IMG/VR virus record: IMGVR_UViG_3300045988_148900 | Coordinates: 32,001-96,000 of that record | Source: a virus | DNA: 64,000 nucleotides | Reading direction: 5' to 3' (one strand) | Shown: one piece after another, positions 2,884 through 60,804 of the stretch | Position numbering within the stretch: position 1 is the stretch's first letter | How the letters are laid out: each line of letters starts with the position of its first letter | Made by a program: the position numbers and the translations under genes | Notes under the pieces: generated by a model | Told to the model about the DNA's origin: nothing | What the model saw: the letters and a program-made list of their open reading frames with translations, nothing else | The model's database searches: none

Positions 2884-2897
2884 GGATATATAATTGC
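2884..2897 (-). promoter_or_regulatory. conserved phage box GGATATATAATTGC (coding strand GCAATTATATATCC), putative late promoter
   Basis: 16 nt upstream of start 2867. It lies inside a 32-nt block (2877-2908) identical to 6190-6221. Confidence 0.55.
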
Positions 2898-3058
2898 ATA
2901 ACCCCAAAACAAAACACCCGGAACATAGAAATGTCCGGAACGTAAAAAAATATAGACTACAACGCTAACTCAAACGAACAACAAAGCACTCGCTGAAAGG
3001 CAAACATAGACCAAGACGCAAAGTATTAATGCAGTCTATGTGATAAACAAGCAAAAAA

Positions 3059-3547
3059 CTAAAGAAGACTAATGGCAACACGAGCACCCTCAAGAGACTC
3101 ACTCAGGGTATCAAGACCTGACTTCACGGCAGGCAACTCCTGAATCCCCAAGTCCGACAAAACACCAGTCAAAGACGACAGCAATGAAACACACGTCGAA
3201 ACACCGCCCGACAAACTCGACTTCTGGCTCGACTTAACACCCGAAACCAAACCAGACGCATCAGCAGTACCAGCACCAGTAGAAACTGCAACAACCAAAG
3301 CCGTATTCGTCGGCGTAGTCGACATAGTAAGCATACTCGAAGCACTCTGTGATAAACTCTTCAAACCTTCCTGAATCTGATCGTAATAAACCTGAGCCTC
3401 CGAAAGCTTCCGATTAATAAAAGCACGAGACGCCTCCGTCAAGATAGACTTGATACTATCACGAGAAACTGAATCCTCAATAGCTGAAAGACTCTCCCCG
3501 TACTTAACATCTATACACTCGGCAACGTCAATACCCAAAAAAGCCAT
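3059..3547 (-). CDS. hypothetical baseplate-module protein (helical, Ala/Ser/Leu-rich)
   Basis: 162 aa from ATG 3547 (MAFLGIDVAE...). The longer track ORF would start inside the upstream gene. It lies between the gpV-like and gp25-like genes. Confidence 0.55.
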   Translation of the reverse strand: MAFLGIDVAECIDVKYGESLSAIEDSVSRDSIKSILTEASRAFINRKLSEAQVYYDQIQEGLKSLSQSASSMLTMSTTPTNTALVVAVSTGAGTADASGLVSGVKSSQKSSLSGGVSTCVSLLSSLTGVLSDLGIQELPAVKSGLDTLSESLEGARVAISLL

Positions 3548-3552
3548 AACCC

Positions 3553-4086
3553 CTAATGTAAAAAGTTCTTGTCCTCCAAAAAAGGATCGTCCGTGCCAAG
3601 CCACTTAACTACATTGCTGCCGCTACCTACGACTGCAAGATCCTTGACCAAAGCCTCCACAAGACTACGAATGCGCGCGACGTTAACAACACCTCCATTG
3701 GAACCATCGTGAACCGTAACAACACCACCGTCGCTACGAAAAACAAAACCCGAACTATTCTCAAAGACGAAAACATCGCCCTCCGTGTAAGCAACACTCC
3801 AAGACGAACCGTCCGAACTAACACTCTCCCACAGTAAGCTGAAGCCCGAACCAAAAGAACTACCATGCGTACGCCAACTCCTATCGTGACTACGACCAAG
3901 AACCAAAGGACTATCAACACCGCAACTGATGTCGACAAAGACAATGTCACCCTCATTCAACGCAACATTCCCTACAACGGGTATCCGCAAGCTACGATCC
4001 CATAAACCACTCGAACGCAACGCAACCCTCCCGAAACCAAGAGGATCACTCGACGAACCGCCTACAACCTCTGCCTTAACTAACAT
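3553..4086 (-). CDS. baseplate hub/spike protein, P2 gpV / Mu gp45-like OB-fold
   Basis: 177 aa from ATG 4086. FGRVALRS..LRIPVVGNVALNEGDIVFVDISCGVDSPLVLG resembles the gpV/gp45 N-terminal OB-fold pattern. Gene order is V - x - W - J-like. Confidence 0.5.
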   Translation of the reverse strand: MLVKAEVVGGSSSDPLGFGRVALRSSGLWDRSLRIPVVGNVALNEGDIVFVDISCGVDSPLVLGRSHDRSWRTHGSSFGSGFSLLWESVSSDGSSWSVAYTEGDVFVFENSSGFVFRSDGGVVTVHDGSNGGVVNVARIRSLVEALVKDLAVVGSGSNVVKWLGTDDPFLEDKNFLH

Positions 4087-4095
4087 CACTAAAAG

Positions 4096-5007
4096 CTAAT
4101 CTACGCGCACAACGTCTAACTCGATATCCTGAACATCTCCACAAAAAGACGAACGATATCCTACACACACAAAATGCTGACCATCCGAACTACCGTCAAG
4201 GTAAGTACAAGAACCACCACAACACAACGTACCGCCAACAAGCTCAACACCCCGAAAAGTAAAACTACGACTCCGCAAGTAACTACGCCAGTAACCATTA
4301 CGACTCCGCCACTGACGATCCAAGCGCAACTCGTCATTCGACAAGTAACTCTTATAAACACCAACCAAACTCCCCGACGACCCAAAGGTCAGATCGACAC
4401 CATCCGAAACACCACCGTCGCCGTCCAAGTACATCCGAAGACGACCCGGAACGTCCGGCTCCGACAAACGACTCGTACTATAACTGTCATTACGACCCCG
4501 GAACCCGAAGCAACTCGGCATACCCCAAGACGCAAGCAAGTCACAATACATAAAGTCCCCACCAACGGTATAATGAAGAGTACTACACCCGCCACCACTG
4601 CAAGCTCCTCCAAGCGTCAACGTCTCGAACAAGTAAGAACCCCTAAGACGCCCGAAGCACCACCAATGACGAACAAGGCTACTCAAACTAGGAAGACTCC
4701 GAAAAGGCAAACCCAAAACGCTACAAACATCCGACAATGTATAGTCTCCGCAAACAGGCTGACGCAACATACCACACATCTTCCAGTAACCCTCCGGATA
4801 ACTCAGATAACGATACGAATTGACGCCCAAGACCTCTACGGAAACAACAACGTACCTACAACCAGTACCACGCCACTCCCAAACGTCGCCTCGAAGAAGA
4901 GTAGACAACTCCATCCAAACCTCGCTGCTGTAACGCCAAACACTCTCCCGGACGCCCCACCGAACAACAGGATACAAAACACCATCGCAATCTACTCGAA
5001 GATCCAT
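4096..5007 (-). CDS. hypothetical tail/baseplate-module protein
   Basis: 303 aa from ATG 5007. Trp/Cys/Tyr/Gly-rich, with no motif recognised. The call rests on context only. Confidence 0.55.
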   Translation of the reverse strand: MDLRVDCDGVLYPVVRWGVRESVWRYSSEVWMELSTLLRGDVWEWRGTGCRYVVVSVEVLGVNSYRYLSYPEGYWKMCGMLRQPVCGDYTLSDVCSVLGLPFRSLPSLSSLVRHWWCFGRLRGSYLFETLTLGGACSGGGCSTLHYTVGGDFMYCDLLASWGMPSCFGFRGRNDSYSTSRLSEPDVPGRLRMYLDGDGGVSDGVDLTFGSSGSLVGVYKSYLSNDELRLDRQWRSRNGYWRSYLRSRSFTFRGVELVGGTLCCGGSCTYLDGSSDGQHFVCVGYRSSFCGDVQDIELDVVRVD

Positions 5008-5016
5008 GACCAAACA

Positions 5017-5241
5017 CTACGACAACGAATTCATACTAACAACGTCCGGACTCAAATAAACAATACTAACGCCGCCCGGAAGACTAAGCCAGTCAACACG
5101 CGGATTCAAAACCTGAAGGATCCGACGATAGTAACTCGAATCACTACCGTAAAGACGACGGCTCACAAAAAGAAGACTGTCACCCTCACTCGAAACATAC
5201 GTCAAATACCCATAGCTCTGATAAGCCTCCTCGATAGTCAT
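5017..5241 (-). CDS. LysM-like small tail protein (tail protein X-like)
   Basis: 74 aa. YVSSEGDSLLFVSRRLYG....ILQVLNPRVDWLSLPGGVSIVYL follows the LysM/gpX pattern (GDTL..IA.r.YG....l...N......L.aG..l.lP). Confidence 0.45.
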   Translation of the reverse strand: MTIEEAYQSYGYLTYVSSEGDSLLFVSRRLYGSDSSYYRRILQVLNPRVDWLSLPGGVSIVYLSPDVVSMNSLS

Positions 5242-5253
5242 AACACCTCAAAC

Positions 5254-6180
5254 TTAAAAACCCGTCATACGACCCGAAAGGCTGTCGAACAACATATCAC
5301 TCGTAGCAACACGAAGAGTCTCAAACGTCAGACTAACCTCCATAACCTGCGGAAAACCACCACTATAATAAAGCTTCGGAATACTAACTCCCAAACTCTT
5401 TATATAAACATTCGACACGAAGCTCCGACCGTAACCAACAGACAATCCACTATTCGTACTCGGATAATAATGAACCTCAACGCCATTAGACAGGGTGCGA
5501 CTATCGGCCCCGACGCCGCGCTTACGACCTCCTGTAACCCAACTAACAATAGGACTCCGAAAAGTGGGAGGAGCATACAAGCTATAAACATCCCCGAAAA
5601 GACCGTTGAAATTCTTGCTAACCCAATCAACAGCGCCCGAAATGCCCCCAGAACCACTATTACCCCTAAGTAAAAAGTCTGCCAAACTATACCAAAAGCT
5701 ATCCTTATGCTTCGCGGCGTCCTTAGCAAAGTCCGACGCAAACTTCGAAACACTCTCCGTAATACTCTTACTCATCTCGTCGCCACGCTGAGGATAAGTG
5801 AGGAAAAACAACCGAAGCAAAGGATCGTAAAAGTCGCTAACAACGTCATCCTCCAAAACCAAGTAACACTTACTACGGAAGCTCAAAGGACTCGTACCCT
5901 GAAACAAAAACTTACGACTATAGTCCACCTGCGGTACAAGACCCCAGCCTATCTGAGCAGCACCTGACAGAAACTTACCAATATTAGTAGAACCAACACC
6001 GCCCGGAATAAGATCCTCGGTCGTAATACCAGCGTCCAAACCAAGACCACCCTCGCTATACATCGAAAACTTCCAAACACCAGCACTACCCATGCTCAAA
6101 CGACCCGCAGGATCGCTACAGCACGTAACATACAACGACAACTTATTTAACTCGCGCAAACGCTGGATGTCCAATGGCAT
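5254..6180 (-). CDS. hypothetical tail-module protein
   Basis: 308 aa, ATG 6180, conserved box 16 nt upstream. It is the first gene after the 625-bp non-coding region. Confidence 0.6.
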   Translation of the reverse strand: MPLDIQRLRELNKLSLYVTCCSDPAGRLSMGSAGVWKFSMYSEGGLGLDAGITTEDLIPGGVGSTNIGKFLSGAAQIGWGLVPQVDYSRKFLFQGTSPLSFRSKCYLVLEDDVVSDFYDPLLRLFFLTYPQRGDEMSKSITESVSKFASDFAKDAAKHKDSFWYSLADFLLRGNSGSGGISGAVDWVSKNFNGLFGDVYSLYAPPTFRSPIVSWVTGGRKRGVGADSRTLSNGVEVHYYPSTNSGLSVGYGRSFVSNVYIKSLGVSIPKLYYSGGFPQVMEVSLTFETLRVATSDMLFDSLSGRMTGF

Positions 6181-6196
6181 GACTAAAACATTTTAT

Positions 6197-6413
6197 GGAT
6201 ATATAATTGCATAACCCCAAACAACACGCAAAAAACATAACCATAACAACAAAAAAACGGATATAGAATTGAGCAAAGCATGCTCTAAAGTAAAAATACC
6301 GGATATAGAATTGCTCCAAGCAACAACCTTGAACTCTATACAAACGCAAATTATAGGATATAGAATTGCTGAAAGTGACGACCAATCTACTAAAATAACG
6401 GATATAGAATTGC
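6197..6413 (-). repeat. array of five promoter-like boxes (1 canonical GGATATATAATTGC + 4 variant GGATATAGAATTG[CA])
   Basis: Boxes at 6197-6210 (canonical), 6259-6272, 6301-6314, 6356-6369 and 6400-6413. All share one orientation, with start-to-start spacings of 62, 42, 55 and 44 nt. The variants share an extended core, GGATATAGAATTGCTCAAAGC. Confidence 0.8.
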
Positions 6414-6805: not shown

Positions 6806-8428
6806 CTAAAACTTTTGGACATTGGGTAAAACTATCGCACCCCGCTGATTATTGTAACATAGTCGCGGCTCCCGCAAAACAGACGTTACGACACGCTTGG
6901 CAACCTCCGGCTCCACAACCGTACCTGACTCCTGCTTAACAAGACCAAGTAACACATTAGTGGCTGTATCTGCATCTCGTAAGTCTATAGGCTGATCCGA
7001 ACGAACACCAACATAAGAAGCTACGTTAGAAGCCCATGCCAGAATGTCGTCACCAGCGTAAGCAGGACGACCTGACATGTTGCCTCCAACATACATACGG
7101 CTAACATCGCCTAAAGTAACCCACTGACCATTAGAACGTGAAATATCCCGGCGATCCTGATAACCAAGCAATGTCATATAGGCAGCCCGCAAAGATAACT
7201 CTGGCGACGAGAACTTAACAAAACGCCTGCCATCAGGTAAGACCTTAGTGCCAGTACGACCCTTCCACTTGACACCAAAGTCCTGAACGTTGGCAATATT
7301 ATTAGTCTGTTTGGCGAGGCTGGAACCTATAGTGATACCTGTGGTCGACTGCTGAGAGATCGGCGAAATTTGAGGCGTTTCCATGGCTGGAATAGCAACT
7401 CCTAAGTCTCTGGAAAACTCAGTAGGACTGACGCGCGAGCCAGACGCGTCTCTAAAGGTGATATGTAAGTGAGCCCCCGAAGTATGCGAGCCTGTGTTGC
7501 CTGAAATAGCTACCACATCCCCTCGTTTTACTTCTGCCCCAACAGGTAAAACCGTATTACTGCTTAGGTGGGCCATACCTATACGACGCCCAGACTTCAT
7601 CCTAACAATAAGAGAAAGACCGCCCGCATCATTATTGGTACCATAAGCCTTCTCAATAACACCTGGCTCGTCGAATGGCCACCGAAGCGGTGTTCCTCCT
7701 GCAATGCGTAAGTCAAGACCACTATGAGCCTTAGAATGCCAACTATCGGTCACTCCGTAATAGGTAGACACCGCACCCTTCTTCTTATCACCGTACTCCT
7801 CACCCACAAGACGCTTGTAAAGCTCCTCGCCAACAACCCCCTGAGCCATGCGCTCAGTATAACCAACTCCAAGTACTGCCGAAGATACAGAGCCTGAAGC
7901 AGAACCTGACCGCATGTCGGAAATCCAAGTCGGCTCCAAAACCCACTCGGCGGTCATGGAATTCCCATCTCCGTCTTTAGGCTCCGCTAAAGAAGAGGCT
8001 GCACGCCTAACCAACTTGAACCCTCCCCACAAAAGAAGACCCCATACTGCTGTAGAACCCACAGACTTGACAAGCTCAAGTAACGCTAAACCCGCCTTAA
8101 TAGGTGCAGGAAGCAACATGGAAGCTCCCTTAGACATCAACCAGCCAAGAACACCCCCATCCTCCTCATCATCATCCTCATCAGCGGCCTTCGCGAGCTT
8201 AGGAGTCTCTACTCCATCCAACGCCGACTGATCGGCCACAGACGTGGACTCCAAGAACTCCCGTAAGGCACTAAGAGACATCTCGCGCCCATTAACAGAC
8301 AAGTCATCAGAATCCGAGAGAGCTGATACTGCCGCAAGCCATACGTCAAGAACAGACGTAGAAAGCTCCGTAAAAGCCTCAACACCCGAACCTATAAGAG
8401 TATCTCGTCCCTCTGATTGCATAAACAT
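6806..8428 (-). CDS. tail-associated peptidoglycan hydrolase with M23/LytM peptidase domain
   Basis: HSGLDLRIAGGTP (HxxxD) and GNTGSHTSGAHLHITF (HxH) are the M23 metallopeptidase motifs. There is an N-terminal hydrophobic segment. ATG 8428 overlaps the TGA of the upstream gene (TGATG). Confidence 0.75.
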   Translation of the reverse strand: MFMQSEGRDTLIGSGVEAFTELSTSVLDVWLAAVSALSDSDDLSVNGREMSLSALREFLESTSVADQSALDGVETPKLAKAADEDDDEEDGGVLGWLMSKGASMLLPAPIKAGLALLELVKSVGSTAVWGLLLWGGFKLVRRAASSLAEPKDGDGNSMTAEWVLEPTWISDMRSGSASGSVSSAVLGVGYTERMAQGVVGEELYKRLVGEEYGDKKKGAVSTYYGVTDSWHSKAHSGLDLRIAGGTPLRWPFDEPGVIEKAYGTNNDAGGLSLIVRMKSGRRIGMAHLSSNTVLPVGAEVKRGDVVAISGNTGSHTSGAHLHITFRDASGSRVSPTEFSRDLGVAIPAMETPQISPISQQSTTGITIGSSLAKQTNNIANVQDFGVKWKGRTGTKVLPDGRRFVKFSSPELSLRAAYMTLLGYQDRRDISRSNGQWVTLGDVSRMYVGGNMSGRPAYAGDDILAWASNVASYVGVRSDQPIDLRDADTATNVLLGLVKQESGTVVEPEVAKRVVTSVLREPRLCYNNQRGAIVLPNVQKF

Positions 8429-13103: not shown

Positions 13104-14675
13104 CTACGCCCCCTCCGTAATAGAAGCATTGTCCATCGGACCAAATACCTCATCTAAATGAGCATCTGCCTCGTCGTAACCACAATGCTCCTCGTGGCAG
13201 AACATCACAGCATCAAAGATGTCATCAATCTGAGACTTCGTCGGATTGGTGACCGTGTACTCTTTAGGAATCACACCATAGTCACCGAACTTCTTGAACA
13301 GCTGGACACCAACCGTCGAAATATCAGCTTTAGCATAGAAGGCGTCAATCCCCTCATTGTCATACAGATCATCCAAACGATCCTCGTCGCCGTCCAGAGC
13401 ATCTTTGCTCTTGCCATAAACAATCAGCATGGCCTCATCGCCCTGATCATGATTGTCGAGTTTGATCTGCTCCGACCACAGAACATAGTCCTCCATCGAG
13501 TACTCAATGCCATTCTTATTGAACGCCTCCGCAAGAGTATCATAAACAACCTCCTCTGATGCATCTGAAACCTTCTTGCCGCGACAAACACAAGGTGCAC
13601 TGTCACTCACTTTATTGCTCTTCAGCTCTAAATCGTTATCAAGATATGATACAACCTCATCTGACGACAAATGTTCATCCGAGCAGAACAAAGCAGCATC
13701 AATAATCTCTCTAACCTGACCAATAGTAGGATTAATAATGTTCCATTCTGCAGACGGACCCTTATCAGATTTAACATCATAAACCTGAATACCCAACACC
13801 TCCAAAGGAGTCTGATCATAGAAGGCATTATCACCAACCTCATCGTAACGAGACGCCAAAACATCCAAAACAGGATCAGTATAAGCATCTTTAGCCATAC
13901 CATAAATCTGAATCTGACCCGCGTCTGCCTGATTGCCATGACCATCAAACTTCTGCTCGTTCATCCAAATAACATAATCCTCAAGGGTATAAGGAAGGTT
14001 AGCATCATCCAAAGCATCCGCCAAATCAGCATAGGTCAAAGTCGCATCATCTTTAACATGCGCCTTCCGAACAGGCTTGCCAACACGCTCACCGACAATC
14101 TTAGCAACCTCGGCCGAATCCTGAACATACCCAGAATCAGACGTCGGAAGAGCCTGATCCAACGCAACAGCTGCATCCTCTGCCGACGACTCCGAGCCGC
14201 GAACATCTGCAACAATCTTCGCGACAGTCTCGAATAACTCTTTAGACGGATTCTTCCACATCCACTCCTTGTAGAAGTCTGACTCGTCGTCAATAAGCTG
14301 AACAAGTAAATACTCCGCGGCAGTCTCAGCAAGAGCCTCATCCATCTTAAAGTACTTAGAACGGCTCCCGCGGAAAACCTCTTCTCGAGCCTCAGTATCC
14401 ATACCACCTACGCTCATATCCAAGCGAACCTCATGACCGTCGTTAATCCATGAATAATTACTCCACATAGTGCCATCGAAAAGCTGCATGTCAACATTGT
14501 GCTTCCGAGAGAGAACCACAGCATCCGTATAAGAGAACGGTACAAGCACCTCCTCCGAATCTGAAACACGACCGCGCTTGCGAGGCAAAGCTGAATCTGA
14601 TACACGACCACTCCGGTTGGTCGAAACCGAGATAACGTCGCCTACAACCTCAGTATAAAAATCTACACTATTCAT
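13104..14675 (-). CDS. acidic protein with internal tandem duplication, function unknown
   Basis: 523 aa. It has two internal repeats of about 150 aa (..LTYADLADALDDANLPYTLEDYVIWMNEQKFDGHG.. vs ..VVYDTLAEAFNKNGIEYSMEDYVLWSEQIKLDNHD..). Confidence 0.6.
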   Translation of the reverse strand: MNSVDFYTEVVGDVISVSTNRSGRVSDSALPRKRGRVSDSEEVLVPFSYTDAVVLSRKHNVDMQLFDGTMWSNYSWINDGHEVRLDMSVGGMDTEAREEVFRGSRSKYFKMDEALAETAAEYLLVQLIDDESDFYKEWMWKNPSKELFETVAKIVADVRGSESSAEDAAVALDQALPTSDSGYVQDSAEVAKIVGERVGKPVRKAHVKDDATLTYADLADALDDANLPYTLEDYVIWMNEQKFDGHGNQADAGQIQIYGMAKDAYTDPVLDVLASRYDEVGDNAFYDQTPLEVLGIQVYDVKSDKGPSAEWNIINPTIGQVREIIDAALFCSDEHLSSDEVVSYLDNDLELKSNKVSDSAPCVCRGKKVSDASEEVVYDTLAEAFNKNGIEYSMEDYVLWSEQIKLDNHDQGDEAMLIVYGKSKDALDGDEDRLDDLYDNEGIDAFYAKADISTVGVQLFKKFGDYGVIPKEYTVTNPTKSQIDDIFDAVMFCHEEHCGYDEADAHLDEVFGPMDNASITEGA

Positions 14676-17099: not shown

Positions 17100-17122
17100 A
17101 ATAAAAAACAATTTAATTTAAC

Positions 17123-17136
17123 GGATATATAATTGC
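17123..17136 (-). promoter_or_regulatory. conserved phage box GGATATATAATTGC, putative late promoter
   Basis: 23 nt upstream of ATG 17099 and immediately downstream of terminator 17150-17191. Confidence 0.55.
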
Positions 17137-17149: not shown

Positions 17150-17191
17150 AAGAAAAAGCAGGCCCCGGGCAAACCACCTCCCGAAACCTGC
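17150..17191 (-). terminator. intrinsic terminator (minus strand)
   Basis: Minus-strand RNA reads GCAGGUUUCGGG-AGGUGGUUUG-CCCGGGGCCUGC, 12 bp including 3 G.U pairs, followed by UUUUUCUUUG. Confidence 0.75.
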
Positions 17192-18934: not shown

Positions 18935-19702
18935 CTAACCAACATAAGTCCTGCTCGTGCAGGGAGTAATATACATAACACCATCTGAGTCAAGTAAGCC
19001 ATTGAAACCTGCCGCCACGGACGCAGACGACCCACAAGGACGACCGCCAAAAGTGAAGCCTACAACCTCCCCGGACTCACCCCGAACGAATAAACGTGAC
19101 GCCTTATTCGGAACCGTGACAGACGACGTCGGAACAAACGGAACCCACGTCTTCTTATCCCAAGACATCTCAATAGGATAACCACCCCAGATAATCTGCA
19201 TAGCAACCTCCTTGCCCCAAGCATCCTCTAAAGAGACAGGAACAAAGTTGCTATGAAAAGACACAGAATAAATAGCAAGAGAGTCTATAAAATCCCTACG
19301 CTCAGGGTAAACCAAACACTCAATAACACCCTGAGAATCTCGATTTATAGGCTTCACGGCAGAAACAGAGTAGACAAGACCGTCAAGCAAAAACCGATCA
19401 TCAAGCATAGGAAGCCGAGGTAAACCTGTACACGACATGTAGATAACCCACGGAATAATATCGCCATCCTGAACCATAGCGTCGTCGCCAAAAGACTCCT
19501 GAACATAAAACATGTCCGGATTCTTCTTAACAATACACTGCTTCAAGACCCGAGCCTCCTCATGAGAGTGACCATCCTGATAAATGTCAAACTCAGTACA
19601 GTTGACTATAAAGATACAATCACGCCGAAGCGGATGCCGGGAAATCCGAACATCCGCCATCTTAGCAGTATATTGCTCTAAAGCACTAAGTCGAGCGTCC
19701 AT
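18935..19702 (-). CDS. hypothetical neck/head-completion-module protein
   Basis: 255 aa, ATG 19702, conserved box 19 nt upstream. Confidence 0.5.
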   Translation of the reverse strand: MDARLSALEQYTAKMADVRISRHPLRRDCIFIVNCTEFDIYQDGHSHEEARVLKQCIVKKNPDMFYVQESFGDDAMVQDGDIIPWVIYMSCTGLPRLPMLDDRFLLDGLVYSVSAVKPINRDSQGVIECLVYPERRDFIDSLAIYSVSFHSNFVPVSLEDAWGKEVAMQIIWGGYPIEMSWDKKTWVPFVPTSSVTVPNKASRLFVRGESGEVVGFTFGGRPCGSSASVAAGFNGLLDSDGVMYITPCTSRTYVG

Positions 19703-19721
19703 GCACAGATCCGAATTTCTT

Positions 19722-19735
19722 GGATATATAATTGC
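19722..19735 (-). promoter_or_regulatory. conserved phage box GGATATATAATTGC, putative late promoter
   Basis: 19 nt upstream of ATG 19702, in an intergenic spacer. Confidence 0.55.
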
Positions 19736-25220: not shown

Positions 25221-25251
25221 AAAAAAAGTGGAGAACATAAAAGTTCTCCAC
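25221..25251 (-). terminator. intrinsic terminator after the capsid gene
   Basis: Minus strand reads GTGGAGAAC-TTTTAT-GTTCTCCAC, a perfect 9-bp stem, followed by TTTTTTT. Confidence 0.85.
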
Positions 25252-25274
25252 CAAAAAGAAACCGTAAATTAGTA

Positions 25275-26818: not shown

Positions 26819-27526
26819 CTAACGAACTCCAAGACTCCGACTAACACGGTCCTTCAGCCGCTCTAAGTCCGAAATAACCTTGCTAATGTCCGCCAATAAA
26901 TGATCGGGATTATAAGCATCGTCTACAGAATCTCGTAACTGATACATCTGCACAGCTTCTCTGAACAGCGGGGACGCCATAAGAGAATCCGAAACTTTCT
27001 CCAACCGAATATCCTCAAAGTTGGGCGACCGAACAAGATCCCATGTAATAACATAGTAGTTGTTCTCATCCAAGTACTCCGAAATGGAGTCCTCCAGATA
27101 GTCACCCAAAGCACGAGTGCTACAACCCGGACGGAAGCCTACGTCGACAAGAGCCTTGATAGCACAACCATCCTCGTTATTAAGCAACCCGCAGTCAATG
27201 TATGGATCATGTGAGGAATCATCAACCCACGCACGCAGCACAATATGCGACGCCTTATTCAAAGGAGTACGCATGTACTCAGAATCATCAAGTGGATGCT
27301 CAATCATCCCAAGCATATCACGACCCTCAACTCGCTGCTGAAGCTGAGAATCGTTCACCACCTTATCCCAAAAACCCTTACGATACCGATAACCCTTCTG
27401 ACTCCGAACGTCACTATGGGACGCCGCACCACGAATAATAGGAATCTTCACTCCCGTGGTGGGATCCTCCTTCGAGTCGACAACCCGGAAAGAACTGCGG
27501 TACGTAGATAAAACTTTGTTAAGCAT
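26819..27526 (-). CDS. prohead protease, T4 gp21-like (putative)
   Basis: 235 aa. GMIEHP resembles the GELDHP His motif, and CSTRALG resembles the Ser motif of gp21-type proteases. It lies immediately upstream of the MCP gene, with the box 17 nt upstream. Confidence 0.5.
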   Translation of the reverse strand: MLNKVLSTYRSSFRVVDSKEDPTTGVKIPIIRGAASHSDVRSQKGYRYRKGFWDKVVNDSQLQQRVEGRDMLGMIEHPLDDSEYMRTPLNKASHIVLRAWVDDSSHDPYIDCGLLNNEDGCAIKALVDVGFRPGCSTRALGDYLEDSISEYLDENNYYVITWDLVRSPNFEDIRLEKVSDSLMASPLFREAVQMYQLRDSVDDAYNPDHLLADISKVISDLERLKDRVSRSLGVR

Positions 27527-27543
27527 CTCTGAAAAAGTTTAAG

Positions 27544-27557
27544 GGATATATAATTGC
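27544..27557 (-). promoter_or_regulatory. conserved phage box GGATATATAATTGC, putative late promoter
   Basis: 17 nt upstream of ATG 27526. Confidence 0.55.
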
Positions 27558-28811: not shown

Positions 28812-28832
28812 AAAAAACAATTTTAATTTTAC

Positions 28833-28846
28833 GGATATATAATTGC
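28833..28846 (-). promoter_or_regulatory. conserved phage box GGATATATAATTGC, putative late promoter
   Basis: 21 nt upstream of ATG 28811 and just downstream of hairpin 28857-28887. Confidence 0.55.
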
Positions 28847-28856: not shown

Positions 28857-28887
28857 CAAAAAAAGAAGAGCCTACAAGACTCTTCTT
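28857..28887 (-). terminator. intrinsic terminator (A/U-rich stem)
   Basis: Minus strand reads AAGAAGAG-TCTTGTAGG-CTCTTCTT followed by TTTTTGCG. Confidence 0.5.
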
Positions 28888-29669: not shown

Positions 29670-29688
29670 AACACATAAATAGTTTTAC

Positions 29689-29702
29689 GGATATATAATT
29701 AC
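29689..29702 (-). promoter_or_regulatory. conserved phage box, variant GGATATATAATTAC
   Basis: 19 nt upstream of ATG 29669. Confidence 0.5.
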
Positions 29703-35874: not shown

Positions 35875-35893
35875 AATACAAAAATAATTTAAC

Positions 35894-35907
35894 GGATATA
35901 TAATTGC
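35894..35907 (-). promoter_or_regulatory. conserved phage box GGATATATAATTGC, putative late promoter
   Basis: 19 nt upstream of ATG 35874 and 11 nt after the terL stop. Confidence 0.55.
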
Positions 35908-37913: not shown

Positions 37914-38034
37914 ACATCTAAAGAAAAGCCCCAAAGGAGGAGGGCCTGCACTCCCTCACTCCCCGGAGCAATACACATCCATCAATCTAATCTACTATCT
38001 GGCGAAATCCTCGTGCAGAAGGACTATATAAAAA

Positions 38035-38560
38035 CTAAGAACGCAAGTCAGCCAAGAAGTCATTAAGACCCGATAAATGATCATACTCGTCCGCCTGAAT
38101 CTCCTTAACCAGCCGCTCCGTCGTGTAGTCACCCAAATCCCGAGACAAATCAATAATCCGCTGATAATGACGAATAGCGCACTCCTCGGACTCGATATTC
38201 TGCTCCAGTATAGGAACGAGCTCCGAAACATTCTCCGGCGTGTGATACTCACACTCAGCTGTCGACTGAATATTGGCAAAGTCGAAAATGTGCGTCGGAA
38301 CATACTGAAGCTCATTCATACGATTGAGAAGCTTCACAAAATGATCATCAAGCTCATCTTTAGCTGTAGCATTGAAAAACTCCTCGATATTGGCTCGCTC
38401 CTGACCCACAAGATAAGGAGAGACGACACGATAAGCGTAAAAAGCGAGAATTTCTTCTGCCGCTGCAATTTCGAGCTCATTGCAAATAGACAGACGAGAC
38501 TCGTCGGGCAAAATATCATCTAACGAGTCGGAAATATACGAAGCAAAATCCCTGACCATA
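38035..38560 (-). CDS. ferritin-like four-helix-bundle protein (alternative: small terminase by position)
   Basis: 175 aa from ATG 38560, or GTG 38589. The Glu/His pattern ..NELEIAAAEE.., ..KDELDDHF.., ..ESEECAIRHY.., ..EIQADEYDHL.. resembles bacterioferritin di-iron ligands, though helix B is ExxxH rather than ExxH. Confidence 0.4.
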
Positions 38561-38601
38561 TTATAAAAAGATATATCCGGTAAACCCACATTGAATTTAC
38601 T

Positions 38602-38615
38602 GGATATATAATTGA
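38602..38615 (-). promoter_or_regulatory. conserved phage box, variant GGATATATAATTGA
   Basis: In the spacer between 38630-39430 and the next gene. It lies 41 nt from ATG 38560 and 12 nt from GTG 38589. Confidence 0.5.
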
Positions 38616-39439: not shown

Positions 39440-40000
39440 CTAAATATTATTGCAAAAATCTACCATCATATCCAAAACAGCCTCCGTAGCCTCCAACTCC
39501 GACTGTCGCTTATGAAGACCACGCTGGCAAAACACAAGCAACGACGGCACTAAACGCCGCGGAACATCAATACGTGAGAAACCAGCATCGCCAGAAAGAT
39601 AAGGAAGCAAATCGGAAAGCTCCGACGGTACAATCTCCGGAACCTTACCCTTCGACGGCGAAACAGACTCAAGCCTATCTTCACGGTTCAATCTACGTAA
39701 CAAATTGCCAGCCTCATTGCGAATCATCGTATAAAGATAATTATACGGTGACATCGACTTATCGAAACGATCGTGACGCTCCATAATAGTCATCAAAGCC
39801 TGACTACGCAAATCGTCAAAGTCCTGATAATACTTGCCAAAGTGAGTATTCAAAACAATACTGATAACCTTGTGAATCTCGTCAAGCTCCCGAGACGTAA
39901 CCTCAGAAACAGGATGAAGATAAAACTGAAGAAGTATCTTCTTATCTATCGCAACACGAGCGGTAGAAGAACTGACAAGTATCTCTGACGAATCACACAT
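39440..40000 (-). CDS. late-transcription sigma factor, T4 gp55-like (sigma-70 region 2 only)
   Basis: 186 aa. RFDKSMSPYNYLYTMIRNEAGNLLRRLNRE parallels my recollection of T4 gp55 ([32 protein letters not shown]) and generic sigma region 2. Confidence 0.55.
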   Translation of the reverse strand: MCDSSEILVSSSTARVAIDKKILLQFYLHPVSEVTSRELDEIHKVISIVLNTHFGKYYQDFDDLRSQALMTIMERHDRFDKSMSPYNYLYTMIRNEAGNLLRRLNREDRLESVSPSKGKVPEIVPSELSDLLPYLSGDAGFSRIDVPRRLVPSLLVFCQRGLHKRQSELEATEAVLDMMVDFCNNI

Positions 40001-40245
40001 GGCTGTAGTAACTTTTTAAGTAATCCAAAACTCGAAAACGTGTGGTCCTATCAGCTAAAGGCCACCAATAAACACACTTCAACTCCTCTTTATGAACATG
40101 AGGCTTACATCGGTAATCTACAGTAGTCCACGTGCGGGGCTTGAATGAACTCGTAAGATGCGGACGTGTAAACTCCTCTATGACATCGGACGTCTTTAAC
40201 AACGACGGCAACCAAAAAGGCCGTGTATCATCAAAAGATAAACAC
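39993..40245 (-). pseudogene. 3' fragment (83 codons) of a phage gene split by TnpB element B
   Basis: The frame continues from 41509-41675 once 40246-41508 (1263 = 3 x 421 nt) is removed. The track ORF 39993-40319 borrows an ATG and 25 codons from inside the element. Confidence 0.55.
40240..40245. repeat. putative 6-bp target-site duplication AAACAC (left copy)
   Basis: aaacac lies immediately outside the left TIR of element B. The same hexamer is at 41509-41514, outside the right TIR. Confidence 0.5.
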
Positions 40246-40335
40246 AGGTGATTATATACAATTCTACACTGCACATATTGGCGTTTCATCGACTTCGTAA
40301 CCTCCGTCTCCACGCCCATCGAACCGTCCCACCGA
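40246..40335 (-). ncRNA. candidate omega-RNA 3' scaffold / right-end block of element B
   Basis: 83 of 90 nt are identical to 29762-29851, although the two TnpB proteins differ at about 12% of residues. Confidence 0.3.
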
Positions 40336-41442
40336 CGGCAAAAACATCGCTAAACCCTCTCTCAAAATGTTGCTGGCGGCATTTAAGTCTCGGTCGTGGA
40401 CCGTACCACATTGTGGACACGCCCAAGTCCTATTGCCTAACGTAAGACCGTCGTTCTTGTAGCCGCAACACCCACAGGTCTTGCTACTCGGGAAGAAACG
40501 GTCGATCTTTAAAACCGTCTTACCCAACCAACGCGCCTTATATTCCAAGACACGAACGAACTCAAACCAACATACACTCTGGATGGATTTAGCTAATCTA
40601 TGGTTACCCATCATGCCCTTAACATTCAAGTCCTCGATAAAAATGGCTTGGTTCTCACCTAAAATACCGTTGACTGCATGATGGATAAAGTTATGAATTA
40701 AATTACGTTTCTTAGCATATAGTTTATTGATTTTTAATCTTATCTCCGCACGGCGACGACTGCCTTTCTGTCGTCTTGCTTCTATTTTCTGCAAGCGGGA
40801 TATCCGACGATCGATGACGTCCGCGAAACGCGGATTAGGTATCTTGCGACCGTCGGAGGTAACCACAAAGTCCTTCAAACCCAAGTCCAGCCCGACACAC
40901 TTGGACTGGCTTGTGATAGGCGTGGGTTTAAGCTCAGGAACACCCGTCTCGACAAGGCAACTCACCCAAAAGAGTCCGCAGCCGTCGCAACTTACCGTGA
41001 CGTTACGTAACTGACCCGCAAACCGACGATCCTGCTTATAGCGTACTAAACCAATCTTCGATAGTTTGATGTGACTACTTTCCTGATCGACACCACAATG
41101 GGTGGACGGAAAACGACATGATAGCTTGCTCCGATGCTTCGACTTAAACCTTGGAAAACCCTGATGCGTCCGGAAAAACATCCGGTAAGCACTATACATA
41201 TCTCGAACCGACTGAACCAAACAAACCGCAGGAACGTCATACAACCATGCGTACTCGGACTTCAGGCCCGTCATCAAGTTAATACATTCGAACTCCGACA
41301 AGGACGTCTTATCTGTCTTGTAAGCCTTAATCTTAATATCAAGCGTAGCATTATAAACAAACCGACAACAACCGAACGTCTGACGCAACATTGCCTGCTG
41401 CGTCTTGTTCGGATAAAGCCGATATTTATAAGCACGCTTCAT
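40264..41442 (-). CDS. tnpB: TnpB RNA-guided endonuclease (paralog of 29780-30958)
   Basis: 392 aa, the same length as copy A. The RuvC contexts VGLDLGLKDF, IFIEDLNVKGM and VHDRDLNAASNI are intact, as is the Zn ribbon CGCCGY...CPQCG. Confidence 0.9.
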   Translation of the reverse strand: MKRAYKYRLYPNKTQQAMLRQTFGCCRFVYNATLDIKIKAYKTDKTSLSEFECINLMTGLKSEYAWLYDVPAVCLVQSVRDMYSAYRMFFRTHQGFPRFKSKHRSKLSCRFPSTHCGVDQESSHIKLSKIGLVRYKQDRRFAGQLRNVTVSCDGCGLFWVSCLVETGVPELKPTPITSQSKCVGLDLGLKDFVVTSDGRKIPNPRFADVIDRRISRLQKIEARRQKGSRRRAEIRLKINKLYAKKRNLIHNFIHHAVNGILGENQAIFIEDLNVKGMMGNHRLAKSIQSVCWFEFVRVLEYKARWLGKTVLKIDRFFPSSKTCGCCGYKNDGLTLGNRTWACPQCGTVHDRDLNAASNILREGLAMFLPSVGRFDGRGDGGYEVDETPICAV

Positions 41443-43081: not shown

Positions 43082-43095
43082 GGAGTTATAATTGC
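43082..43095 (-). promoter_or_regulatory. conserved phage box, variant GGAGTTATAATTGC
   Basis: It overlaps the stop codon of the methyltransferase gene and lies 21 nt upstream of ATG 43060. Confidence 0.4.
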
Positions 43096-44499: not shown

Positions 44500-44808
44500 C
44501 TACTCTGACGCCTCGCCCGAAACCCCAGCAGCCTCAGCAGACGGCGAAACAATAGGCTCCAAATAATAGAACCCGCCCCAACGACTCCGAATCTTGAATA
44601 CGTCGCCGACGAGATGCTGAACCTTATTCTTGATGACACGCAAATTGCGAATCTCGACCTCTAACTTCGTGCACAAGTCCGTAACACTCACACGATCCCC
44701 AACAGGAACCTCCGTCAAAAGACGCCAGAAAGAAGCCTGCATGTGAGTAAGATCAACACTTACACCATCCTTCAAAACTACACTCTCACGATCTACACTT
44801 CTTGCCAT
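44500..44808 (-). CDS. winged-helix DNA-binding protein, OmpR/PhoB C-terminal-like
   Basis: 102 aa. DLTHMQASFWRLL...IRNLRVIKNKVQHLVG..IRSRWGGFYYL follows the Trans_reg_C pattern (LT..E..lL...i..LR.Kl...i.tvrG.GY.l). Confidence 0.45.
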   Translation of the reverse strand: MARSVDRESVVLKDGVSVDLTHMQASFWRLLTEVPVGDRVSVTDLCTKLEVEIRNLRVIKNKVQHLVGDVFKIRSRWGGFYYLEPIVSPSAEAAGVSGEASE

Positions 44809-45133
44809 AATTTAAAACTTTTGTTAAAATAAAATCTATAAAGACATCTAAAATGGACTCCAAGCCTGCATAAGGACAGTACGGAAACCTAAGCTCACCA
44901 TACTGTGCGTCGCAAGACCCGCTAAGTAAGCCCTCAATCTGTAAAAACGAATCGTCTGAAACGCGTACAAGCCTAATGAAGCCAAAGACACCTAAATCGT
45001 CCCAGCCAAAACTTACACAACCACGAGTTGGGATGACAGGAGACAACAACGGCGACTGAGGCTGAACTATAAGGACATTCATCAGCTCCCACCGCAAACG
45101 ACGACGCAACTCGAACTCTAAATCAAAATCCAT
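44786..45133 (-). CDS. hypothetical protein
   Basis: 115 aa, ATG 45133, preceded by a host-type -7 box. Confidence 0.5.
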   Translation of the reverse strand: MDFDLEFELRRRLRWELMNVLIVQPQSPLLSPVIPTRGCVSFGWDDLGVFGFIRLVRVSDDSFLQIEGLLSGSCDAQYGELRFPYCPYAGLESILDVFIDFILTKVLNYGKKCRS

Positions 45134-53797: not shown

Positions 53798-54415
53798 CTA
53801 CCTCCTACGAGACTGACGCAACTTTCTATAAAACGGCATGACATCATAGTAACGAAGACGATCAGACCCTAACTTATCAAAAGCAAGATCCAAAGCAGAA
53901 GACCATAAAGACTGAGACATCTCCGGATAGGGAATCTTGCTAAGCTCCGAACGAGTCTGATAAACCATCCAACGCCTCTTCGCATCCGGAGAAACGCCCG
54001 ACGAAACACTACGAGAAGGTGACGACGGACGAGAAGACGACAAGGACTCAGCAAAACTGCCAAAGTCGCCAACACGCGGCGAAACAACAGGATCAAAATC
54101 TATATCCGTGCCATCCTTCGGGAAAGAATGATAACCATCACTCCCATCCTCCGGAAACAAATCCTCAACAAGCCAAGCGGTATCCGTCTCTCCGCGAAAA
54201 CGGTAAGTGACACCATCAATCTCAACCAAAGAACCTACAGAACCACTCGACGCATCCAAAACCTCATCCGACGTCAAAAGTGCAAAAGCCGACGAGTCCG
54301 AAACACGGCAGAGACTATAAACAACGCCACCACGAACACCATCCGAACGCAACGACGAAAGACCCCGACGACGACACTCCGACGCACTCAATCCCGAAAG
54401 AAGCTCTATGACCAT
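53798..54415 (-). CDS. hypothetical Ser/Arg-rich protein
   Basis: 205 aa, with the box 20 nt upstream. Confidence 0.5.
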   Translation of the reverse strand: MVIELLSGLSASECRRRGLSSLRSDGVRGGVVYSLCRVSDSSAFALLTSDEVLDASSGSVGSLVEIDGVTYRFRGETDTAWLVEDLFPEDGSDGYHSFPKDGTDIDFDPVVSPRVGDFGSFAESLSSSRPSSPSRSVSSGVSPDAKRRWMVYQTRSELSKIPYPEMSQSLWSSALDLAFDKLGSDRLRYYDVMPFYRKLRQSRRR

Positions 54416-54435
54416 GAAGCTACGTTAAATTTAAC

Positions 54436-54449
54436 GGATATATAATTGC
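54436..54449 (-). promoter_or_regulatory. conserved phage box GGATATATAATTGC, putative late promoter
   Basis: 20 nt upstream of ATG 54415 and downstream of hairpin 54464-54494. Confidence 0.55.
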
Positions 54450-54463: not shown

Positions 54464-54494
54464 AAAAAACTGCCGAAATGGAGAAGATCTCGGC
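54464..54494 (-). terminator. intrinsic terminator (moderate)
   Basis: Minus strand reads GCCGA-GATCTTCTCCATT-TCGGC followed by AGTTTTTTCG, after the stop of 54543-55757. Confidence 0.45.
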
Positions 54495-58796: not shown

Positions 58797-58816
58797 CCCA
58801 CGGCTAAAGCCGCGGG
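58797..58816. repeat. IS605 right-end subterminal hairpin
   Basis: cccacggc-taaa-gccgcggg, with one mismatch, overlaps the tnpB stop codon. Confidence 0.6.
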
Positions 58817-59934
58817 ATTCTTGACTCAGACATGGCCGCCACCGAGGTGGGCTTACTACCACTAATCAACGCGTCCATGCCCGAACGCCGAATGTTTAAC
58901 GCTGCGTTGAGATCACGATCATGATGCGTTCCGCACTGCGGACAAAGCCATGAACGGTCAACCAACCGAAGCTCTTTATTAACGTACCCGCATCCACTGC
59001 ACAGCTTGCTACTCGCAAACCACTTATCGACATGCACAACGTTCGTGTTGTACTTAGTAGCTACGAACTCCAAGCGCGACACGAATGATGCGTGGCTGAG
59101 ATCCGAAACCTTACGGCCCCATAAGCGACGCATACCATCAAGGATCAACGTCTCCAAGCAGATCGTAGAATAACACTGACAAAGATCATGCGCTAAGCGC
59201 CACTGATAATCGTCACGATGGTTGCTGATCCCACGATAGAGCCTGCTGAGTTCAAGACGCCGACGGCGGTGGTTATTTGAGCCTTTGACGGATTGGCTCA
59301 ACCGCCGATGCGCCTTACGGATATCACGAAGCGTCTGCTTAAAGAATTGAGGGTTCTCGTAACTGCGCCCGTCGGATAACGTCAAATACGTCTTCAAGCC
59401 AAAGTCAATGCCTACAACCGCACCATCATGTGTCGTGTTGCTGGATTCTACCTTAGCGTCGGTTACGACGTACAACCAAAAGTCGCCGCACGGAGCACGC
59501 TTAACGCGAACCGTCTTTATCGCACCATCAAAATTACGGGATTTATGAAATTTATAAGTCTTCTTAAGTCTGTTGATTGTGAAGCAATTGCCGTCTATCT
59601 TATACCCATAATGCAGCTTATAGGCAAAGGATTGAAAATCCGCGGCACATCGGAACTTAGGCGGCCGCTTGGCAAGCTTCTTGAAGAAACGTTGGTACGC
59701 AGCAGCAAGTCGCTGCAACACCTCAATGCTATTGTGTGAGTACAATAGATGCCGCTTGATGCGCTTTGTAAAATGCTTCTGCATGTCAACCGTTGAAACG
59801 TACTTGCCATACATACGGTAGTATCTACGTTGAAGCGCAAGTGCGTGGTTCCATACAAACGCACACTCCCGAAGCATCCGGTCCAACCATACGGTCCGAT
59901 GTGTCTTGTAGAGTTTGTATTTGTATGTCAACAT
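58804..59934 (-). CDS. tnpB: TnpB RNA-guided endonuclease (IS605 OrfB)
   Basis: 376 aa. It begins MLTYKYKLYKT and carries VGIDFGLKTY, ICLETLIL and HHDRDLNAALNI, plus the Zn ribbon CSGCGY...CPQCG. Confidence 0.9.
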   Translation of the reverse strand: MLTYKYKLYKTHRTVWLDRMLRECAFVWNHALALQRRYYRMYGKYVSTVDMQKHFTKRIKRHLLYSHNSIEVLQRLAAAYQRFFKKLAKRPPKFRCAADFQSFAYKLHYGYKIDGNCFTINRLKKTYKFHKSRNFDGAIKTVRVKRAPCGDFWLYVVTDAKVESSNTTHDGAVVGIDFGLKTYLTLSDGRSYENPQFFKQTLRDIRKAHRRLSQSVKGSNNHRRRRLELSRLYRGISNHRDDYQWRLAHDLCQCYSTICLETLILDGMRRLWGRKVSDLSHASFVSRLEFVATKYNTNVVHVDKWFASSKLCSGCGYVNKELRLVDRSWLCPQCGTHHDRDLNAALNIRRSGMDALISGSKPTSVAAMSESRIPRL

Positions 59935-59973
59935 TACTGTACTCTTTATGCCACAAATATAAGAATAAAATAC

Positions 59974-59981
59974 TATCTTTG
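59974..59981 (+). promoter_or_regulatory. host-type -7 box TATCTTTG upstream of tnpA
   Basis: Plus-strand tatctttg lies 12 nt upstream of ATG 59994. Confidence 0.45.
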
Positions 59982-59993
59982 CAAATAAAAACT

Positions 59994-60392
59994 ATGCGTA
60001 CACGTTGGCAGACGAATAAAGGCTCCGTCTATAATGTAGCCTATCATATCATCTGGTGCCCCAAGTACCGGAGGAAAGTTCTTACAGGAGATATTGCCGA
60101 GCGCTTCAAGGCTTTGCTCTATGAACAAGCCGCCAAGTTCGGATGGGTTATCGAGTCGCTGGAGGTCATGCCTGATCATGTACATCTATCCATTAAGGCT
60201 AATCCTATTGATCCGGTTGCGCGGATTGTGGCACAGCTTAAGGGCTACACGTCACACATGCTGCGGCTTGAATTTCCGTCGCTTCAGACGCGCATGCCGA
60301 CCCTCTGGACGCGATCCTATTACGTCGAGACGATAGGACACATTTCAGAGGATACGATACGTCGATATATTGAGGATCAGAAGAAAAAGTAG
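59994..60392 (+). CDS. tnpA: IS200/IS605 Y1 (HUH) transposase TnpA
   Basis: 132 aa from ATG 59994. It has YHIIWCPKYRR, the HUH motif PDHVHLSI and the catalytic-Tyr context WTRSYYVETIG. Confidence 0.9.
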   Translation: MRTRWQTNKGSVYNVAYHIIWCPKYRRKVLTGDIAERFKALLYEQAAKFGWVIESLEVMPDHVHLSIKANPIDPVARIVAQLKGYTSHMLRLEFPSLQTRMPTLWTRSYYVETIGHISEDTIRRYIEDQKKK

Positions 60393-60434
60393 GCTGCATT
60401 CATCCCATGCCTAAAGGCATGGGCTTTCTGCAGC
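60393..60434. repeat. IS605 left-end subterminal hairpin
   Basis: gctgca-ttcat-cccatgcc-taaa-ggcatggg-ctttc-tgcagc. Confidence 0.6.
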
Positions 60435-60465
60435 TTTAATTCGTAAACTATACAAAACAAAGACG

Positions 60466-60783
60466 CTAACGCTCCGGCGCCCCAAGCTCGCTGAAGCCCC
60501 CGAAAGGAATCGAGAAACCACGCTCCAAAGGACCTACAAGAGTGACAACAACATCTGTGCCGTCGGGCCGACACTTGCCGTAACAACCACCGAAGATAGG
60601 AACGGCACGCTGGCATAAACAAGGAGAATCCCGAAAGACACAAACACTGCACCAGCAGTAAGGCAACGCCGTAACCTCCGACGAATCCGTAGGACGCAAC
60701 AAATATAAATCCGACGCGCGCGTAACCGCATAAATGTTACCGCACAACGCAAAACGACCTCCGGCTGGAACGAAACCTCTCAT
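60466..60783 (-). CDS. hypothetical Cys-rich protein
   Basis: 105 aa from ATG 60783 (MRGFVPAGG...), with the box only 7 nt upstream. Confidence 0.45.
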   Translation of the reverse strand: MRGFVPAGGRFALCGNIYAVTRASDLYLLRPTDSSEVTALPYCWCSVCVFRDSPCLCQRAVPIFGGCYGKCRPDGTDVVVTLVGPLERGFSIPFGGFSELGAPER

Positions 60784-60790
60784 GGTATCC

Positions 60791-60804
60791 GGATATATAA
60801 TTGA
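60791..60804 (-). promoter_or_regulatory. conserved phage box, variant GGATATATAATTGA
   Basis: In the spacer between 60823-61554 and 60466-60783. Confidence 0.5.

Follow-up and report, generated by a model that had tools for sequence, protein, structure and literature searches.

The box and the genes around it

The DNA analysed here, called the window, is a stretch of 64,000 nucleotides covering positions 32,001 to 96,000 of the virus record IMGVR_UViG_3300045988_148900 (IMG/VR). It carries repeated copies of a 14-nt box, GCAATTATATATCC, in front of genes of one orientation as well as a gene (39440-40000) for a 186-amino-acid (aa) protein with a region 2 of sigma factors. A first-pass annotation had regarded the box as the probable late promoter and this protein as the gp55-like factor that reads it. 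Searches against Pfam and PHROG identified a T4-type portal protein, a prohead protease, a major head protein, a clamp loader, an M23 peptidase, a Dps/ferritin-like protein, three TnpB proteins and two homing endonucleases. Nearly all long open reading frames (ORFs) are located on the minus strand. Distant relatives of the phage show the gene order clamp loader - sigma - x - large protein - approximately 165 aa - portal - ... - protease (Peptidase_S77) - Gp23, and this conserved order places the 671-aa protein encoded at 35919-37934 at the sheath position and the 230-aa protein encoded at 35182-35874 at the tube position.

On the minus (coding) strand of the whole window GCAATTATATATCC occurs in eight exact copies and six further copies with one mismatch. 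These 14 sites compare to 0.01 sites expected from 100 dinucleotide-preserving shuffles; when up to three mismatches were allowed, 20 sites were observed and 4.7 expected. All of the 14 copies are intergenic. Table 1 gives an overview of the individual copies. Among the variants, the copy at 29689 begins with GTAATT and those at 38602 and 60791 with TCAATT (one mismatch each), while the copy at 43082 has two mismatches. All 12 copies listed by the first-pass annotation were found at their positions on the minus strand, and its statement that they lie in spacers, in the orientation of the minus-strand genes, holds throughout. According to our gene map non-coding DNA makes up 7.7% of the window and contains 12 of the 12 listed sites; none of them falls within coding sequence and none on the plus strand. 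The gap between box and start codon is indeed mostly 16-23 nt, exceptions being the boxes at 38602 (42 nt) and 60791 (7 nt).

Table 1 Box copies, terminators and related features. Box start is the lowest coordinate of the 14-mer; lower-case and upper-case letters after it give the adjoining 3′ extension; gap is the distance to the start codon
Feature	Coordinates	Strand	Box start	Sequence	Gap (nt)	Gene or position
Exact box	2876..2897	-	2884	box + aTAAAATt	16	GTG start of 103-aa gene, weak baseplate/gp25-like match
Terminator-like hairpin + T-run	~2902-2938					upstream of box 2884
Exact box	6189..6210	-	6197	box + aTAAAATg	16	ATG of 308-aa gene 5254-6180; kept in relatives
Array of four variant boxes	6259..6413	-	6259, 6301, 6356, 6400	(G/T)CAATTCTATATCC		
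Exact box	17115..17136	-	17123	box + gTTAAATt	23	ATG (17099) of 604-aa gene, no assigned function
Terminator hairpin + T-run	17150..17191 (hairpin 17191-17158)	-				-23 kcal/mol; adjoins box 17123 upstream
Exact box	19714..19735	-	19722	box + aAGAAATt	19	ATG of 255-aa gene 18935-19702
Exact box	27536..27557	-	27544	box + cTTAAACt	17	prohead protease gene 26819-27526
Exact box	28825..28846	-	28833	box + gTAAAATt	21	ATG (28811) of 281-aa gene 27966-28811
Terminator hairpin (11 pairs) + T-run	28857..28887 (hairpin 28887-28863)	-				adjoins box 28833 upstream
One-mismatch box	29681..29702	-	29689	GTAATTATATATCC + gTAAAACt	19	253-aa gene, tail-fibre C-terminal domain
Exact box	35886..35907	-	35894	box + gTTAAATt	19	230-aa tube-position gene 35182-35874 (synteny)
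One-mismatch box	38594..38615	-	38602	TCAATTATATATCC + aGTAAATt	42	Dps/ferritin-like gene 38035-38559
Candidate late sigma, 186 aa, sigma region 2 only	39440..40000	-				no box upstream
Degenerate box	43082..43095	-	43082	GCAATTATAACTCC, without AAAT	21	110-aa gene, then clamp-loader gene
Exact box	54428..54449	-	54436	box + gTTAAATt	20	205-aa gene 53798-54415
Terminator hairpin + T-run	54464..54494 (hairpin 54494-54472)	-				adjoins box 54436 upstream
One-mismatch box	60791..60804	-	60791	TCAATTATATATCC, without AAAT	7	ATG (60783); atypical
GGATAT(AT) downstream of a box	38571-38578, 2859-2866; L001 ~8139-8148; L087, L005, L011, L015			GGATATAT at 38571-38578		window and related contigs (L numbers)

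The boxes at 17123, 28833 and 54436, and also the one at 2884, start approximately 4-13 nt past a terminator hairpin with its T-run. Three of these hairpins had been noted before and proved to be real; to them we add the terminator-like hairpin before box 2884. Since the boxes directly follow the terminators, there is no space for another promoter upstream of them.

Motif extension

A logo of 73 non-redundant sites revealed that the motif runs on in the 3′ direction as box-NNN-AAAT. This extension had been missed in the first-pass annotation, as had the array of variant boxes at 6259-6413. Position 20 is an A in 68 of the 73 sites and position 21 a T in 64, and both positions lay outside all search patterns. 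Information is confined to box positions 1-14 and to positions 18-21. Upstream of the box the logo contains none, so that a -35-like element is lacking. The sites at 43082 and 60791 are atypical in that the AAAT extension is absent, and box 43082 is probably weak or inactive.

In the array upstream of the exact box 6197, position 7 of the box is changed from A to C, the AAAT extension is absent and the boxes are spaced 42-62 nt apart. Near relatives possess two to four copies of the array box with C or T at position 7, but never A. The array is absent from a more distant clade, which keeps a G/T-rich non-coding stretch of 300-400 nt at the equivalent position. Decoy or docking sites are conceivable for the array boxes, and so are degenerate tandem promoters or an origin- or pac-like element.

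Conservation in related contigs

Viral contigs were scanned with the box and part of its 3′ extension, which returned many loci. A total of 111 sites with at most one mismatch was found on 15 related contigs, always on a single strand within each contig. At 85 of 100 testable sites an ATG-started ORF of at least 60 aa begins 10-41 nt downstream, compared to 23% of random same-strand positions. By the DNA identity of the matching stretches to the window, the relatives form two clades (81-97% and 65-78%). In the distant clade (65-78%) the 14-mer is unchanged before the orthologous protease, head-fibre, tube-position, 604-aa, 308-aa, 103-aa and 205-aa genes, while the flanking sequences have diverged.

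A further scan covered one genome per species from 185,579 bacterial and archaeal species. Multiple copies of the box were present only in phage contigs binned with a Muribaculaceae metagenome-assembled genome (MAG), and all other matches were single. The box is thus no part of a host regulon. A literature search for the motif yielded unrelated primer matches only, and a look-up of the tube-position protein, made for contig ends marking transcript 5′ ends, yielded metagenome assemblies only.

Genes served by the box

The genes served by the box in the window comprise the protease-capsid operon, the tube-position gene, the genes for a protein with a tail-fibre C-terminal domain and for the Dps/ferritin-like protein, and several genes of no recognisable function. 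The protease gene (PHROG match, 2e-16) is followed by the major capsid gene 25275-26780 and then by a strong terminator (25227-25252); the tube-position gene is followed by a terminator of its own at 35152-35174. Behind the box-served 103-aa gene, whose product is weakly baseplate-like, an ORF of more than 850 aa leaves the window. As to this left end, positions 1-2555 (minus strand) represent a single gene and not non-coding DNA; recoded stop codons had been considered for the ORF-poor region and were rejected, one frame being open from 2555 to the window edge.

In relatives the box also precedes genes for a holin (6e-13), an fn3 protein and a head-fibre protein (5e-15). The latter is the orthologue of the 281-aa product of 27966-28811 and shows a head-fibre domain in the distant clade. 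The Dps/ferritin-like gene 38035-38559 (NCBIfam, 1.5e-16) has a counterpart under a box in L137, a relative whose sigma factor is 44% identical. No canonical box was found before the genes for the clamp loader, the methylase, the Toprim-like protein, the phosphoesterase and the sigma factor, or before the mobile genes. Many of the replication and mobile genes have a host-type TAnnTTTG box in its place.

The served genes had been described as mostly virion genes. This applies to the protease, the fibre protein and, weakly, the gp25-like protein. The 604-aa gene behind box 17123, called sheath-sized, has no detectable sheath similarity; by synteny the sheath position belongs to 35919-37934, which has no box of its own. 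The label "neck" could not be confirmed, and PHROG, Pfam and solved-structure searches with most large or box-driven proteins returned nothing.

A second promoter class

TAnnTTTG is the -7 element of Bacteroidota promoters. It has 18 intergenic copies on the gene strand of the window and precedes the three TnpB genes, one homing endonuclease gene and several small genes. In four cases (two TnpB genes, 44786-45133 and the tube-position gene) it lies at a distance of exactly 4 nt from the ATG; for the two TnpB genes this spacing suggests leaderless mRNAs. Primary-sigma promoters of Bacteroidota (-33 TTTG / -7 TAnnTTTG) are present before other genes of the same genome, whereas the box contains neither TAnnTTTG nor a -33 TTTG partner. 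This agrees with the earlier statement that the box does not resemble the host-type boxes in front of mobile and presumed early genes. Two promoter classes in one phage are expected for an early/late switch. A scan for sigma-70 promoters found no more of them than shuffled sequences contain; such a scan is not relevant to a Bacteroidales host. Bacteroidales are the most likely host group because of the TAnnTTTG boxes and because related phage contigs were binned with a rabbit-gut Muribaculaceae MAG.

The three TnpB (IS605 OrfB) genes lie at 29780-30958, 40264-41442 and 58804-59934, each with a TAnnTTTG box, and the first two are approximately 83% identical in DNA.

A small sigma factor with region 2 only

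The 186-aa product of 39440-40000 matches Sigma70_r2 at 1e-8. NCBIfam profiles of extracytoplasmic function (ECF) sigma factors matched over profile positions 17-84 of 165 only, with scores under the cut-offs. An AlphaFold2 (AF2) model was obtained with a mean pLDDT of 82.6. Its best match among solved structures was region 2 of E. coli sigmaE, and among viral models phage sigma factors, several of which are annotated as gp55 or late sigma (PhiW-14, CP20, Moby, Kuja). The designation as a gp55-like factor can draw on the Sigma70_r2/ECF-type match and on weak fold matches, among them gp55-annotated sigma factors of phages, but not on a sequence-based membership of the gp55 family.

The sigma gene is present on nine related contigs, and all nine (9/9) carry boxes. 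A contig whose sigma factor is 55% identical carries the boxes GCAATTATATATCG and GCAATTATATATCT, one with 48% identity carries TCAATTATATATAC, and one with 44% identity has two copies of GCAATTATATATTT, one of which, as in the window, precedes a ferritin gene. On these three contigs the boxes lie 17-20 nt upstream of start codons, and on the 55% and 44% contigs they are located just past terminator-like hairpins with T-runs. No box was found on the contigs with sigma factors of 38% and 33% identity. The core CAATTATATAT accordingly tracks the sigma lineage down to 44% identity.

In seven relatives the sigma gene directly follows a coding gene and has no box, and in L131 it is preceded by a good host-type promoter, TTTG...TATCTTTG. 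At the window locus, a 108-aa ORF (39993-40319) overlaps the 3′ end of the TnpB gene 40264-41442 and the start of the sigma gene. This ORF may be spurious and cover the RNA/right-end region of the TnpB element.

Comparison to known promoter systems

In T4 late promoters a TATA box of 8 bp lies about one helical turn before the start and is followed by an AT-rich segment, without a -35 element; the consensus TATAAATA is recognised by gp55 together with gp33 and the gp45 sliding clamp, and late transcripts have either polarity (PMC2988020). The box resembles them as a single AT-rich TATA-type element that lacks a -35 partner and is followed by an AT-rich segment, and its positions 6-13, TATATATC, agree with TATAAATA at 6 of 8 positions. 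As in T4, genes for the virion and for lysis stand behind it and genes for replication do not, here judged from gene content, in a phage that has the core of portal, capsid, protease and clamp loader and encodes a small sigma factor (186 aa) with a region-2-like domain only. T4 gp55 is of about the same size. Furthermore, the late promoters of T4 e, soc, 49 and I-TevI lie inside a hairpin formed only by read-through RNA (PMC3014915), and some sites of the present phage place the predicted promoter in a hairpin that only read-through RNA could form. Unlike T4, the phage has 14 invariant bases plus AAAT instead of 8 bases, the box departs from the TATAAATA consensus, and all sites point in one direction. 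In addition, the host belongs to the Bacteroidales, there is no Shine-Dalgarno sequence and the spacing to the ATG is short, and the sigma factor matches ECF-type region-2 profiles and not gp55 by sequence.

The sigma factor gp36 of phage phiEco32 has no region 4 and reads, in middle/late promoters, a single element, tAATGTAtA, located 6-8 bp upstream of the start (PMC8948821). Common features are the phage sigma factor without region 4, one highly conserved element, the lack of a -35 element and promoters at conserved genome positions in related phages. Nevertheless phiEco32 is a podovirus of E. coli, its element is unrelated in sequence and comprises 9 bp versus 14 or more here, and it has an accessory factor, gp79, for which no equivalent was identified here. 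Promoters of ECF (group 4) sigma factors consist of -35 and -10 elements approximately 16-17 bp apart, which are read by regions 4 and 2. No second conserved element accompanies the box, and the protein matches the region-2 half of ECF profiles only, so that an ECF promoter does not describe the findings. The box would fall into the single-element class of the T4 or phiEco32 type, but it is much longer and lacks the sequence of the T4 family.

Start-site register

If TATATATC (box positions 6-13) takes the place of T4 TATAAATA (-13 to -6), initiation would fall on the conserved A run 4-6 nt past the box (s-4 to s-6, where s is the box start). The position +1 would then be approximately position 19, and the A/U-rich leaders would be about 11-20 nt long without a Shine-Dalgarno sequence. 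This register appears most likely. The very short leaders of the first-pass annotation would depend on where transcription starts. It is favoured because divergent relatives keep the box core while AAAT moves by 1-3 nt or is lost, because the array variants all alter position 7, the A of the TA step, and because, as in T4, AT-rich sequence follows. In -10 elements of the sigma-70 type the A of the TA step is the key -11 base.

A probable late promoter and its proposed sigma factor

With a probability of roughly two thirds, as we estimate it from the sequences, the box GCAATTATATATCC-NNN-AAAT is the core of a late promoter, a single-block element of the -10 type without a -35 partner, which is read by the sigma factor encoded at 39440-40000. 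This sigma factor would be expressed from the box-less early/middle block of replication genes, would bind the core of the host (Bacteroidales) RNA polymerase and would steer it to the box. Transcription of the virion and lysis genes would begin a few bases past the box. The promoter role, the late action, the reading by this sigma factor and the start site are what we infer. For the late promoter proposed by the first-pass annotation we can name the strand and intergenic bias, the post-terminator sites, the conservation, the lack of a -35 element, the gene classes and the co-occurrence with the sigma gene; the proposed pairing of this particular sigma factor with the box is one of co-occurrence only.

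Several observations weigh against this interpretation. The link between sigma factor and box is a co-occurrence within one clade. The presumed recognition helix YTMxRNExGN is also kept in the 38% and 33% identical homologues, whose contigs lack the box, and as this helix is conserved throughout, the co-occurrence falls short of a covariation of sigma factor and box. Fourteen invariant bases hold far more information than a region-2 domain needs (8 in T4, 9 in phiEco32). The fold matches of the sigma factor are weak (E 0.01-0.1) though consistent, T4 gp55 was not retrieved by sequence, and searches of solved structures with the sigma factor and its profile gave only one marginal match, to an ECF sigma factor. 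None of the scanned ORFs could be identified as a homologue of gp33 or gp45, no search having been aimed at either. For some of the box-served genes a virion function is not obvious (the Dps/ferritin-like gene, several unknowns), and some structural genes, for example the portal gene and the 523-aa gene 13104-14675, lack a box. It is also possible that the register is a different one, with wwAAAT as a T4-like -10 element, a start about 13-16 nt after the box and leaders of 2-10 nt. The AAAT core is all that wwAAAT shares with T4 TATAAATA. Such nearly leaderless mRNAs may be tolerated, since host-type -7 boxes lie 4 nt from some ATGs.

The long block and the AAAT extension could also reflect a two-part system, which we regard as rather doubtful. 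The 14 bases would be read as duplex by a second phage protein or by the C-terminal domain of the sigma factor, which is not a sigma4 domain, melting and initiation would take place in AAAT, and the boxes of the A7C array would serve for docking or titration without melting and thereby tune late transcription. The sigma/box pair would in that case be an orthogonal transcription system for Bacteroidales.

Other explanations

A promoter of this kind might also owe its specificity not to the 39440-40000 sigma factor alone but to an unrecognised phage RNA polymerase, whose T7-style promoter would be contiguous, approximately 21 nt long and inclusive of the start site, or to a late activator that binds duplex DNA and works with the host polymerase. 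We consider this unlikely, although the conserved block of 14 invariant bases plus AAAT is long and contiguous and thereby closer to the promoters of single-subunit polymerases than to -10 elements. As in T7-type systems, a contiguous block of about 20 nt is nearly invariant genome-wide, probably spans the start site and is co-oriented with the genes. Large proteins without a detectable family do exist (950, 793 and 782 aa in the window, 1304 and 682 aa in relatives), and the presumed recognition helix of the sigma factor is unchanged in homologues on box-less contigs. On the other hand, neither the window ORFs tested nor the large ORFs of related loci, which together cover about half of the genome of approximately 135-142 kb, yielded an RNA polymerase domain, and those large ORFs of related loci that gave matches encode an SNF2 helicase and a DNA polymerase of family A that contains an intein. 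The core of the phage is T4-like, a sigma factor is encoded, and T4-type phages are not known to possess an RNA polymerase of their own. Moreover, a phage polymerase would leave the conserved sigma gene without another candidate promoter class.

Two further explanations do without a promoter function of the box. A role in RNA, as a processing site, in ribosome loading or translational control, or as the arm of a leader hairpin in transcripts started upstream, would suit the short and rather fixed distance between box and start codon in a host group without Shine-Dalgarno sequences. In 9 of 57 non-redundant sites, compared to about 2.3 expected and 0 upstream, the motif GGATAT(AT) follows the box at 17-25 nt, next to the start codon or overlapping it. 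Pairing between this motif and the 3′ half of the box is predicted at -10 to -16 kcal/mol. At box 38602 the partner of the 3′ half of the box is GGATATAT, the arms of such a hairpin being ATATATCC and GGATATAT. Nevertheless, the partner is absent at most sites and no Rfam match was obtained, AAAT keeps a fixed distance to the box but not to the ATG (gaps vary between 16 and 23 nt), and the four boxes directly behind terminators leave no space for an upstream promoter. Since these points stand against it, an RNA role seems improbable. The hairpins are lineage-specific and their partners are not conserved between the clades, so that they represent a lead and not a finding; they could be formed by read-through and not by box-started transcripts, and they fit better to the layout of T4 e, soc, 49 and I-TevI (PMC3014915). 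Hardly credible is a recombination or mobile-element landmark, that is, a target or portable end of homing-endonuclease or insertion sequence (IS) cassettes, or a PeSL-like shuffling repeat. In near relatives (L014, ~1021-2174, and L017) a GIY-YIG/NUMOD homing-endonuclease cassette of 1.1 kb does separate an exact box from the degenerate GCAATTATAACTCC; of these two boxes the window holds the degenerate copy only (43082-43095), and a TnpB gene lies just upstream of box 29689, another one just upstream of a box in L132. Most boxes, however, have no mobile gene nearby, and the box is invariant across the clades before orthologous core virion genes; the preference of mobile genes for intergenic promoter regions is an expected side effect.

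The idea of a TnpB guide or insertion site was dropped, the homology of the two TnpB copies stopping about 60 nt before box 29689. The leader of the L014/L017 cassette (tagcacgtc..ttagtg) resembles the leader of the window endonuclease gene 31494-32744.

Genome context and significance

Megablast of 12 kb of the window against GenBank phages gave no match. With the capsid protein of the window, tblastn retrieved only a 4.6-kb fragment from human faeces (69% identity to its translation) and remote T4-like capsids (approximately 24% identity). One related scaffold has a length of 134.6 kb. Neither tRNA genes nor Rfam matches were found in the window.

Promoters of Bacteroidales phages are almost unknown, and the clade described here comprises uncultured T4-like gut phages of 100-140 kb. 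A phage sigma factor with a single-element late promoter is expected in a T4-like phage; the advance is one of detail and scope and not of principle. With such a late promoter read by the phage sigma factor, late genes, including those without a recognisable family, could be called from the sequence alone in genomes of this type, and the T4 model of late transcription could be tested in a distant host phylum. The pair of sigma factor and box would provide a compact and probably orthogonal system for Bacteroides engineering.

Interruptions by inteins or LAGLIDADG domains occur in the family A DNA polymerase of the related contig L061 and, in two more distant relatives, in the large sheath-position protein (L134, 11127-14123; L136, 6628-10437). 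The window shows a strong and uniform strand skew, T greatly exceeding A on the coding (minus) strand (AT skew of the plus strand 0.13-0.55) and G exceeding C. This skew leads to long spurious antisense ORFs, for example 4174-5673 on the plus strand with 499 aa. The 243-aa protein encoded at 60823-61554 contains a Tad3 domain (inhibitor of type I Thoeris; E 8e-13), which makes its gene a candidate anti-defence gene.

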